DNA from: Escherichia phage T7
Length of the DNA stretch: 38,166 nt
Strand: one strand, 5' to 3'
Sequence record: MZ375249.1
Shown: positions 143 to 38,166 of the stretch, piece by piece
How positions within the stretch are numbered: the stretch's first letter is position 1
Layout: every line of letters begins with the position of its first letter
Notes under the pieces: generated by a model
Databases searched by the model: none
What the model was told of the DNA's origin: nothing
What the model saw: the letters and a program-made list of their open reading frames with translations, nothing else
Program-made: the position numbers and the translations under genes

Positions 143-340
143 CTCTGTTACAGTCTCCTAAAGTATCCTCCTAAAGTCACCTCCTAACGTCCATCCTAAA
201 GCCAACACCTAAAGCCAACACCTAAAGACCCATCAAGTCAACGCCTATCTTAAAGTTTAAACATAAAGACCAGACCTAAAGACCAGACCTAAAGACACTA
301 CATAAAGACCAGACCTAAAGACGCCTTGTTGTTAGCCATA
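143..340. repeat. Array of short CCTAAAG-type heptamer repeats adjacent to left terminal repeat (concatemer processing/packaging region)
   Basis: Repeated cctaaag / acctaaag / cataaag units visible directly in sequence. Confidence 0.8.
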
Positions 341-7429: not shown

Positions 7430-8011
7430 TGGGACTGTTAGATGGTGAAGCCTGGGAAAAAGAAAACCCGCCAGTACAAGCAACTGGGTGTATAGCTTGC
7501 TTAGAGAAAGATGACCGTTATCCACACACCTGTAACAAAGGAGCTAACGATATGACCGAACGTGAACAAGAGATGATCATTAAGTTGATAGACAATAATG
7601 AAGGTCGCCCAGATGATTTGAATGGCTGCGGTATTCTCTGCTCCAATGTCCCTTGCCACCTCTGCCCCGCAAATAACGATCAAAAGATAACCTTAGGTGA
7701 AATCCGAGCGATGGACCCACGTAAACCACATCTGAATAAACCTGAGGTAACTCCTACAGATGACCAGCCTTCCGCTGAGACAATCGAAGGTGTCACTAAG
7801 CCTTCCCACTACATGCTGTTTGACGACATTGAGGCTATCGAAGTGATTGCTCGTTCAATGACCGTTGAGCAGTTCAAGGGATACTGCTTCGGTAACATCT
7901 TAAAGTACAGACTACGTGCTGGTAAGAAGTCAGAGTTAGCGTACTTAGAGAAAGACCTAGCGAAAGCAGACTTCTATAAAGAACTCTTTGAGAAACATAA
8001 GGATAAATGTT

Positions 8012-10424: not shown

Positions 10425-12294
<1,870 letters not shown>

Positions 12295-13125: not shown

Positions 13126-15240
13126 ATGATCGTTTCTGACATCGAAGCTAACGCCCTCTTAGAGAGCGTCACTAAGTTCCACTGCGGGGTTATCTACGAC
13201 TACTCCACCGCTGAGTACGTAAGCTACCGTCCGAGTGACTTCGGTGCGTATCTGGATGCGCTGGAAGCCGAGGTTGCACGAGGCGGTCTTATTGTGTTCC
13301 ACAACGGTCACAAGTATGACGTTCCTGCATTGACCAAACTGGCAAAGTTGCAATTGAACCGAGAGTTCCACCTTCCTCGTGAGAACTGTATTGACACCCT
13401 TGTGTTGTCACGTTTGATTCATTCCAACCTCAAGGACACCGATATGGGTCTTCTGCGTTCCGGCAAGTTGCCCGGAAAACGCTTTGGGTCTCACGCTTTG
13501 GAGGCGTGGGGTTATCGCTTAGGCGAGATGAAGGGTGAATACAAAGACGACTTTAAGCGTATGCTTGAAGAGCAGGGTGAAGAATACGTTGACGGAATGG
13601 AGTGGTGGAACTTCAACGAAGAGATGATGGACTATAACGTTCAGGACGTTGTGGTAACTAAAGCTCTCCTTGAGAAGCTACTCTCTGACAAACATTACTT
13701 CCCTCCTGAGATTGACTTTACGGACGTAGGATACACTACGTTCTGGTCAGAATCCCTTGAGGCCGTTGACATTGAACATCGTGCTGCATGGCTGCTCGCT
13801 AAACAAGAGCGCAACGGGTTCCCGTTTGACACAAAAGCAATCGAAGAGTTGTACGTAGAGTTAGCTGCTCGCCGCTCTGAGTTGCTCCGTAAATTGACCG
13901 AAACGTTCGGCTCGTGGTATCAGCCTAAAGGTGGCACTGAGATGTTCTGCCATCCGCGAACAGGTAAGCCACTACCTAAATACCCTCGCATTAAGACACC
14001 TAAAGTTGGTGGTATCTTTAAGAAGCCTAAGAACAAGGCACAGCGAGAAGGCCGTGAGCCTTGCGAACTTGATACCCGCGAGTACGTTGCTGGTGCTCCT
14101 TACACCCCAGTTGAACATGTTGTGTTTAACCCTTCGTCTCGTGACCACATTCAGAAGAAACTCCAAGAGGCTGGGTGGGTCCCGACCAAGTACACCGATA
14201 AGGGTGCTCCTGTGGTGGACGATGAGGTACTCGAAGGAGTACGTGTAGATGACCCTGAGAAGCAAGCCGCTATCGACCTCATTAAAGAGTACTTGATGAT
14301 TCAGAAGCGAATCGGACAGTCTGCTGAGGGAGACACAGCATGGCTTCGTTATGTTGCTGAGGATGGTAAGATTCATGGTTCTGTTAACCCTAATGGAGCA
14401 GTTACGGGTCGTGCGACCCATGCGTTCCCAAACCTTGCGCAAATTCCGGGTGTACGTTCTCCTTATGGAGAGCAGTGTCGCGCTGCTTTTGGCGCTGAGC
14501 ACCATTTGGATGGGATAACTGGTAAGCCTTGGGTTCAGGCTGGCATCGACGCATCCGGTCTTGAGCTACGCTGCTTGGCTCACTTCATGGCTCGCTTTGA
14601 TAACGGCGAGTACGCTCACGAGATTCTTAACGGCGACATCCACACTAAGAACCAGATAGCTGCTGAACTACCTACCCGAGATAACGCTAAGACGTTCATC
14701 TATGGGTTCCTCTATGGTGCTGGTGATGAGAAGATTGGACAGATTGTTGGTGCTGGTAAAGAGCGCGGTAAGGAACTCAAGAAGAAATTCCTTGAGAACA
14801 CCCCCGCGATTGCAGCACTCCGCGAGTCTATCCAACAGACACTTGTCGAGTCCTCTCAATGGGTAGCTGGTGAGCAACAAGTCAAGTGGAAACGCCGCTG
14901 GATTAAAGGTCTGGATGGTCGTAAGGTACACGTTCGTAGTCCTCACGCTGCCTTGAATACCCTACTGCAATCTGCTGGTGCTCTCATCTGCAAACTGTGG
15001 ATTATCAAGACCGAAGAGATGCTCGTAGAGAAAGGCTTGAAGCATGGCTGGGATGGGGACTTTGCGTACATGGCATGGGTACATGATGAAATCCAAGTAG
15101 GCTGCCGTACCGAAGAGATTGCTCAGGTGGTCATTGAGACCGCACAAGAAGCGATGCGCTGGGTTGGAGACCACTGGAACTTCCGGTGTCTTCTGGATAC
15201 CGAAGGTAAGATGGGTCCTAATTGGGCGATTTGCCACTGA
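13126..15240 (+). CDS. 5: Gene 5, DNA polymerase (704 aa)
   Basis: [36 protein letters not shown]...; exonuclease and Pol I family motifs; ends NWAICH. Confidence 0.99.
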
Positions 15241-15952: not shown

Positions 15953-16841
15953 CCTTAAACAATTCTATGAGTTACGTGAAGGCTGCGACGACAAGGGTAT
16001 CCTTGTGATGGACGGCGACTGGCTGGTCTTCCAAGCTATGAGTGCTGCTGAGTTTGATGCCTCTTGGGAGGAAGAGATTTGGCACCGATGCTGTGACCAC
16101 GCTAAGGCCCGTCAGATTCTTGAGGATTCCATTAAGTCCTACGAGACCCGTAAGAAGGCTTGGGCAGGTGCTCCAATTGTCCTTGCGTTCACCGATAGTG
16201 TTAACTGGCGTAAAGAACTGGTTGACCCGAACTATAAGGCTAACCGTAAGGCCGTGAAGAAACCTGTAGGGTACTTTGAGTTCCTTGATGCTCTCTTTGA
16301 GCGCGAAGAGTTCTATTGCATCCGTGAGCCTATGCTTGAGGGTGATGACGTTATGGGAGTTATTGCTTCCAATCCGTCTGCCTTCGGTGCTCGTAAGGCT
16401 GTAATCATCTCTTGCGATAAGGACTTTAAGACCATCCCTAACTGTGACTTCCTGTGGTGTACCACTGGTAACATCCTGACTCAGACCGAAGAGTCCGCTG
16501 ACTGGTGGCACCTCTTCCAGACCATCAAGGGTGACATCACTGATGGTTACTCAGGGATTGCTGGATGGGGTGATACCGCCGAGGACTTCTTGAATAACCC
16601 GTTCATAACCGAGCCTAAAACGTCTGTGCTTAAGTCCGGTAAGAACAAAGGCCAAGAGGTTACTAAATGGGTTAAACGCGACCCTGAGCCTCATGAGACG
16701 CTTTGGGACTGCATTAAGTCCATTGGCGCGAAGGCTGGTATGACCGAAGAGGATATTATCAAGCAGGGCCAAATGGCTCGAATCCTACGGTTCAACGAGT
16801 ACAACTTTATTGACAAGGAGATTTACCTGTGGAGACCGTAG
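15939..16841 (+). CDS. 6: Gene 6, 5'-3' exonuclease (300 aa)
   Basis: MALLDLKQFYELREGCDDKGILVMDGDWLVFQAMSAAEFD... Confidence 0.97.
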   Translation: MALLDLKQFYELREGCDDKGILVMDGDWLVFQAMSAAEFDASWEEEIWHRCCDHAKARQILEDSIKSYETRKKAWAGAPIVLAFTDSVNWRKELVDPNYKANRKAVKKPVGYFEFLDALFEREEFYCIREPMLEGDDVMGVIASNPSAFGARKAVIISCDKDFKTIPNCDFLWCTTGNILTQTEESADWWHLFQTIKGDITDGYSGIAGWGDTAEDFLNNPFITEPKTSVLKSGKNKGQEVTKWVKRDPEPHETLWDCIKSIGAKAGMTEEDIIKQGQMARILRFNEYNFIDKEIYLWRP

Positions 16842-37646: not shown

Positions 37647-37669
37647 TAATACGACTCACTATAGGGAGA
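37647..37669 (+). promoter_or_regulatory. T7 promoter phiOR
   Basis: taatacgactcactatagggaga. Confidence 0.95.
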
Positions 37670-37824
37670 GGAGGGACGAAAGGTTACTATATAGATACTG
37701 AATGAATACTTATAGAGTGCATAAAGTATGCATAATGGTGTACCTAGAGTGACCTCTAAGAATGGTTGATTATATTGTATTAGTATCACCTTAACTTAAG
37801 GACCAACATAAAGGGAGGAGACTC

Positions 37825-37872
37825 ATGTTCCGCTTATTGTTGAACCTACTGCGGCATAGAGTCAAGTCCTAA
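37825..37872 (+). pseudogene. 19.5: Gene 19.5 remnant (15 codons, MFRLLLNLLRHRVKS, then stop)
   Basis: Start matches T7 19.5 (MFRLLLNLLRH) but the ORF ends after 15 codons; about 188 bp missing between phiOR and the right terminal repeat versus reference. Confidence 0.7.
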
Positions 37873-37995
37873 GGTATACCCATAAAGAGCCTCTAATGGT
37901 CTATCCTAAGGTCTATACCTAAAGATAGGCCATCCTATCAGTGTCACCTAAAGAGGGTCTTAGAGAGGGCCTATGGAGTTCCTATAGGGTCCTTT
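37865..37995. repeat. Short CCTAAAG-type repeat array adjacent to right terminal repeat
   Basis: Repeated cctaagg / cctaaag / cataaag units. Confidence 0.7.
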
Positions 37996-38024
37996 AAAAT
38001 ATACCATAAAAATCTGAGTGACTA

Positions 38025-38166
38025 TCTCACAGTGTACGGACCTAAAGTTCCCCCATAGGGTGTACCTAAAGCCCAGCCAATCACCTAAAGTCAACCTTCG
38101 GTTGACCTTGAGGGTTCCCTAAGGGTTTGTCTTTGGGTGTTACCTTGAGTGTCTCTCTGTGTCCCT
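38025..38166. repeat. Right direct terminal repeat, identical to 1..142
   Basis: Exact 142-bp match to the window start. Confidence 0.95.

Follow-up and report, generated by a model that had tools for sequence, protein, structure and literature searches.

A 189-bp deletion near the right end of this T7 genome is mediated by a 9-bp direct repeat, one copy of which was kept, and it has cut gene 19.5 down to a 15-codon remnant. The allele is known rather than new, having already been deposited as part of an engineered phage lineage. It probably formed by annealing or recombination between the two repeat copies, following a Cas9 break in gene 19.5, and was kept as a CRISPR-escape deletion that nobody had designed.

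Endpoints of the right-end deletion

The analysed window, i.e., the whole stretch of 38,166 bp, has the T7 terminal repeat at each end and aligns collinearly to NC_001604 (39,937 bp), with >99.9% identity apart from a few gaps. The presence of terminal repeats at both ends and this collinearity indicate that the window is the complete genome of a T7 derivative. The features located around the deletion are the following:

37647..37669, + strand: phiOR promoter TAATACGACTCACTATAG, with +1 at 37664 (sequence and alignment)
37766 (reference 39331/39332), + strand: 1-bp T insertion changing GAATGGTGATT to GAATGGTTGATT, between phiOR and gene 19.5
37811..37820, + strand: gene 19.5 ribosome-binding site, intact, with GGGAGGAG at 37813-37820, the same as in the reference
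37825..37872, + strand: truncated gene 19.5 ORF, MFRLLLNLLRHRVKS; ATG at 37825-37827, 15 sense codons, TAA at 37870-37872
37856..37864, + strand: deletion junction, with the one kept copy of the 9-bp direct repeat ATAGAGTCA (alignment)
37865..38024, + strand: right-end repeat region that was kept, from the junction to the terminal repeat, identical to reference 39618-39777

The original prediction was that of a deletion of ~188 bp in this region, to be checked by alignment to the reference. A four-way alignment and BLAST against NC_001604 revealed a single gap between phiOR and the terminal repeat, corresponding to the loss of 189 bp (reference 39429-39617 or, equivalently, 39420-39608), with the endpoints falling exactly on the 9-bp direct repeat. 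The anticipated size held for the net shortening, but not for the deletion itself: the genome is 188 bp shorter because the 189-bp deletion is offset by the 1-bp T insertion at 37766. This insertion is unrelated to the deletion, and it was not present in the reference or in nine related clones, all of which were aligned at that position. We have also remeasured the distance from the phiOR +1 (37664) to the right terminal repeat (38025), which was 361 bp in the window and 549 bp in NC_001604 (annotated positions 39229 and 39778), in agreement with the values first proposed (361 and about 549 bp).

The reference carries ATAGAGTCA twice. The left copy (39420-39428) lies within gene 19.5, in codons 11-14, and the right copy (39609-39617) lies 71 bp beyond the gene 19.5 stop codon, abutting the first right-end repeat unit. 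Exactly one copy was kept and no bases were inserted at the junction, and a junction rebuilt from the reference matched the window exactly. No exact direct repeat of at least 9 bp other than ATAGAGTCA brackets gene 19.5 within the interval from phiOR to the terminal repeat. If deletion endpoints were random, a junction homology of at least 9 bp would be expected with P ~3e-5; the five other internal (non-terminal-repeat) deletions of this genome have 0-1 bp, compared with 9 bp here. The suggestion that the deletion lay between short repeated segments, pointing to recombination, was borne out as far as short direct repeats and the recombination or annealing that they imply are concerned. It had, however, assigned the repeats to the right-end array, and the left copy is inside gene 19.5; the ATAGAGTCA pair lies outside the CCTAAAG-type array, with the right copy just before it.

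We have searched the rest of the window for the lost 189 bp, and only chance matches of 10-15 nt were obtained, which rules out relocation of this DNA within the genome.

Gene 19.5 remnant and lost palindrome

The 15-codon ORF with its stop at 37870..37872, already recognized in the original prediction, could be read directly in the window sequence. It is composed of 13 native codons followed by two new ones (K and S) and the stop codon. Reference gp19.5 has 49 amino acids, as expected from the 49 codons attributed to its gene, 36 of which were lost. The remnant is devoid of the hydrophobic segment found at about residues 13-36 of reference gp19.5, of the portion matching Pfam DUF5465 (residues 31-49), and of the region matching phrog_2193. 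This 15-residue product is presumably that of a null allele. A non-essential protein, gp19.5 has been linked to the timing of lysis (PMC2680503; PMC8365609). Together with the gene segment, 79 bp of non-coding DNA 3' of gene 19.5 were lost.

The deleted DNA includes a 41-bp imperfect palindrome (reference 39568-39608) centred at reference 39588, which is 190 bp to the left of the terminal repeat. Its arms (39568-39586 and 39590-39608) are complementary at 15/19 positions and are separated by a 3-nt loop. Among 16 distinct natural T7-group sequences, the palindrome varied at one of 41 columns, the central loop base, with nine variable columns found in each of the flanking segments of 33 and 24 bp. 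Its predicted single-strand fold was no better than that of shuffled sequence (z = -1.18), and significant single-stranded DNA folding is accordingly unsupported. The palindrome is probably the "m" (M-hairpin) site, which serves in the processing of concatemers. Heineman et al. (PMC2680503) place "m" next to 19.5 and describe the loss of both in the mutant of Kim and Chung (1996), for which they give late lysis and small plaques.

The allele belongs to a CRISPR-driven genome-reduction lineage

A 39-mer spanning the junction, and matching only the contiguous junction, was searched in 50,697 phage records. It was found in 41 of them, all within MZ375238-MZ375292, and the positive records whose descriptions were read were all entered as "Mutant Escherichia phage T7 clone T7_nnS" or "...L." Nineteen clones of the MZ375233-292 series were without the junction. 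It was also absent from the natural T7-group phages, as judged from 187 matching records, and natural relatives retain a 280-bp spacing across the site.

All 41 carriers are clones of the CRISPR/Cas9 "CiPGr" reduction of the T7 genome described by Yuan et al. (2022) in Nucleic Acids Res (PMC9825161). According to that paper, T7 was passaged 300 times on E. coli MG1655 equipped with plasmid-borne Cas9 and lambda-Red and with a pooled spacer library with 50-bp-arm repair templates, the Cas9 library being aimed at non-essential genes. At every tenth transfer, a large-plaque (L) and a small-plaque (S) clone were taken for sequencing. The paper lists gp19.5 among three T7 "large fragments" that were lost without design, for which a CRISPR-escape mutation is suggested; gene 19.5 appears to be among the designed targets.

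The window and T7_90S (MZ375250) are collinear: all six deletions are common to both, and 15 small differences set them apart. The window is probably clone T7_90L (MZ375249), based on the accession order of the MZ375233-292 series; clone names were confirmed for 18 records and followed that order. Besides the right-end deletion, the window has five internal deletions:

window 1322/1323, reference 1341-1903: 563-bp deletion across genes 0.4-0.6
window 7026/7027, reference 7608-7763: gene 1.4 coding sequence removed exactly
window about 10516, about reference 11254-11542: gene 3.8 mostly deleted
window about 12322, about reference 13353-13547: gene 4.3 mostly deleted
window 15255/15256, reference 16483-16820: gene 5.3 mostly deleted

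The ribosome-binding sites downstream of the 3.8, 4.3, and 5.3 deletions were spared. The deletions of 1.4, 3.8, 4.3, and 5.3 fit template-directed edits, and that of 0.4-0.6 is probably another undesigned loss. As a separate observation, the +1 base of promoter phiOL (window 387, reference 405) is changed from A to G, giving the consensus TATAGGGAGA; this substitution was seen in 30L and in the later clones checked, and not in 30S.

When compared with the published study, the gp19.5 loss reported there (PMC9825161) corresponds to a junction that is base-identical in the 41 deposited clones, and the CiPGr clones share a background formed by a deletion within 0.4-0.6 and the deletions of 1.4, 3.8, 4.3, and 5.3. 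The window differs from the deposited clones in its unique T insertion at 37766 and in its own combination of genome-end alleles. The accessible text of the study does not mention the 9-bp repeat, the lost palindrome, or the association with plaque size that we present below.

Association with plaque size

For transfers 30-170, the junction was present in 14 of the 15 S clones and in one of the 14 L clones (120L). The latter count becomes 2/15 if the window is 90L. Fisher's exact P for the difference between S and L is ~2e-5. For transfers 180-300, it was present in all clones (26/26). Five extra clones (MZ375293/294 and OL964739-41) were without the junction 39-mer. They are taken to come from the follow-up screens of the same paper on plain hosts, the descriptions read being those of T7_100L.2 and T7_5t3, and right-end alignment of MZ375293 and OL964741 showed an intact 19.5 region in both. 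This pattern, a correlation within one evolving population and not the outcome of a reconstruction, is consistent with an allele that is costly but was maintained under the CRISPR regime.

The deletion was found in different genome-end contexts. In 30S it is combined with T162C and a wild-type terminal repeat, in 40S with A161C and a terminal repeat of the full 160 bp, and in the window with a shortened terminal repeat; the shortened repeat occurs without the 189-bp deletion in 80L and 160L. Since all four combinations of deletion and terminal-repeat state exist, either recombination or recurrence must have occurred.

Changes at the concatemer junction

Two further features of the genome ends were altered in the window:

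143..149 (reference 161-167), + strand: class II pause element, ATCTGTT changed to CTCTGTT (alignment)
38025..38166, + strand: right terminal repeat, 142 bp vs. 160 bp, lacking 18 bp at 38122/38123 and with G replaced by T at 38061

In the concatemer, the pause element is located ~300 bp downstream of the deletion junction. It was wild type in 10L and mutated in every clone examined at transfer 30 or later (17/17, of which 16 are deposited and one is the window), whatever their 19.5 status. Five combinations were observed (ACCTGTT, ACCTGTA, ATCTGTA, CCCTGTT, and CTCTGTT), with substitutions at three positions, the allele of the window being present in 34 records. Reportedly, class II termination does not survive any base change in the element (bioRxiv 10.1101/2021.01.11.426313), and a transposon-type screen identified just two essential loci at the ends of T7, position 162 being one of them (PMC11482910). 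We have considered A161C as a deletion-specific compensator, based on its frequency with and without the deletion (30/41 vs. 1/19), and ruled this out because every clone examined from transfer 30 has a mutation in the element. A Cas9 off-target origin of the pause-element mutations is unlikely, since the overlapping protospacers have at least seven mismatches to other PAM-adjacent 20-mers in T7.

The left terminal repeat (1-142) has both changes of the right copy, with the 18-bp deletion at 98/99 and the G-to-T change at 37. The 18-bp deletion (reference 99-116) occurred between GGGTT repeats, with 5 bp of junction homology, and takes out an inverted repeat that can be read from the sequence (AAGGGT...ACCCTT). 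The 47 records that carry it all belong to the CiPGr study, and its occurrence at both ends fits one junction copy duplicated during packaging. The G-to-T change at window 37/38061 (reference 37/39814) lies within the terminal-repeat palindrome CCCCCATAGGGGG, where sibling clones showed at least five other alleles (G35T, single-base deletions, and an extra C). The variation in this palindrome may reflect a selection hot spot or homopolymer sequencing noise. Separately, 170L and 220S were seen to carry an 11-bp deletion, ACCTTCGGTTG (reference 70-80/39847-39857), inside the terminal-repeat hairpin GTCAACCTTCGGTTGAC, so that a further palindrome close to the junction is being lost.

Among the clones, three terminal-repeat palindromes were recurrently deleted or mutated. 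The changes in the pause element, the 41-bp palindrome, and the terminal repeats go unmentioned in the available text of the CiPGr paper (PMC9825161). The patterns suggest selection on concatemer-processing signals, with hitch-hiking in a few long-lived lineages as an alternative. That the 189-bp deletion is itself one of several convergent lesions dismantling the T7 concatemer-processing cis-elements on Cas9/lambda-Red hosts is a speculative extension, which we hold to be rather unlikely. If the changes were selected, the M-hairpin and the junction pause would be dispensable, or even harmful, in this setting, and T7 ends would then be made by another route.

Origin of the deletion

The lineage was exposed to Cas9, and the pathway that we favor starts with a double-strand break that the nuclease would have made within gene 19.5, between the two repeats. 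The broken ends would have been resected by an exonuclease, and the 9-bp repeats could then have annealed through T7 gp6/gp2.5 and/or lambda Exo/Beta, with removal of the flaps. The product would survive because the targeted protospacers are gone. The result is the 15-residue gp19.5 remnant and the loss of the 79 bp of downstream non-coding DNA, in an allele that seems costly (small plaques) but is viable, and that had become universal among the sequenced clones by transfer 180. In support of this pathway, for 10 of the 13 candidate NGG protospacers in gene 19.5 the predicted cut falls within the lost 189 bp, and there is precedent for T7 evading CRISPR through deletion of a non-essential target gene (Strotskaya et al. 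2017, PMC5389539). In six undeleted clones (80L, 100S, 130L, 150L, 160L, and 170L), gene 19.5 was unchanged, and so no alternative escape mutation was found there. The gene being intact in L clones through 170 transfers, CRISPR pressure on it must have been weak, or the spacers poor. Given weak pressure, the deletion may be of spontaneous origin. Replication slippage or recombination at the repeats would then have taken place without a Cas9 break, and the product would have been selected, or have hitch-hiked, for loss of the palindrome (the candidate M-hairpin) instead of loss of protospacers. We regard this course of events as unlikely, although several observations speak for it. Gene 19.5 is otherwise unmutated in the undeleted clones. 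The palindrome of undeleted clones bears T39591C (12 records in all), which from transfer 60 on is carried by all of them but 70L; from transfer 80 on, each sequenced clone has a lesion of the palindrome, either T39591C or the 189-bp deletion. An additional clone, T7_5t3 (OL964741), which may or may not be independent of the main series, has A39585G, which changes the base opposite T39591 in the palindrome. Both substitutions are outside the seed of any NGG protospacer, which hints that palindrome loss, and not protospacer loss, was selected, and other hairpin-forming or pause elements near the concatemer junction were repeatedly changed. Against this, most clones with the deletion form small plaques and kill weakly, and the region is retained by the clones presumably selected on plain hosts; T39591C is possibly one hitch-hiking event in one lineage; and the authors of the CiPGr study (PMC9825161) ascribe the undesigned losses to CRISPR escape. 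Repair of a Cas9 break through the 9-bp repeats, with escape as the benefit, is thus the origin that we retain as probable.

The same paper, in which gene 19.5 is apparently a designed target, raises the question of whether the deletion could be a designed edit of 19.5 as a cassette gene, introduced by homologous recombination with a 50-bp-arm template. Other deletions of the window do look designed, such as the exact removal of the gene 1.4 coding sequence. However, the endpoints of the 189-bp deletion are off the gene boundaries, one lying in codon 14 and the other 79 bp beyond the stop, and they fall on a natural 9-bp repeat, whereas the designed deletions show 0-1 bp of homology. The CiPGr paper (PMC9825161) moreover classes the gp19.5 loss as undesigned. 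Based on the non-boundary endpoints, the 9-bp homology, and this "undesigned" label, we have ruled out a designed edit as highly improbable. Nothing specific speaks for an assembly artefact or a natural polymorphism among T7 strains, apart from repeat-rich genome ends being prone to misassembly. A 9-bp repeat is far too short for assembly collapse, and the junction is present in 41 assemblies and missing from 19 clones of the same series, which were presumably assembled alike. As to natural variation, 0 natural T7-group phages had the junction among 187 matching records, their 280-bp spacing being retained. With 41 shared junctions and none in natural phages, both possibilities were rejected, their likelihood being negligible.

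Significance and comparison with known systems

The deletion shows that T7 can grow and be packaged without reference 39429-39617, which comprises most of gene 19.5 and the following 79 bp, and that repeats only 9 bp long suffice for T7 to lose the DNA between them. This information is of use in the annotation of the record and in phage-genome design. The ~60 time-ordered public genomes seem to carry unreported parallel changes in packaging and processing signals, including a pause element that is held in the literature to be required and intolerant of any base change. The side observations on the palindrome and the pause element are more interesting than the 19.5 deletion, and will mostly be of interest to T7 specialists.

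Work of the Masker laboratory in the early 1990s reportedly established that T7 deletion between short direct repeats is stimulated by double-strand breaks. Deletions of that type have in common with the present one the short flanking direct repeats, the one copy that is kept, and the absence of filler DNA. They differ in that the break would here have been made by Cas9, as we infer, and in that lambda-Red was also present in the host.

A CRISPR-targeted non-essential gene was likewise lost by deletion, and not altered by point mutation, in the study of Strotskaya et al. (2017, PMC5389539). There, 59 nt of gene 0.7 were deleted and the targeting system was of type I-E, whereas the nuclease was Cas9 in the lineage analysed here.

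The closest counterpart is T7 Δ(19.5-m) (Kim and Chung, Virology 1996; Kim, Kim and Chung, Virology 1997), as cited in PMC2680503. In both phages, gene 19.5 and adjacent non-coding DNA were lost. The same source describes T7 Δ(19.5-m) as viable, with small plaques and with the region implicated in concatemer processing; this is paralleled by the present allele, for which plaque size is known by association. The present allele differs in having arisen under Cas9/lambda-Red passaging and in having kept the first 13 codons. The 189-bp allele thus belongs to a class known since 1996, that of T7 lacking 19.5 and m, and the palindrome that was lost with it is probably m itself.
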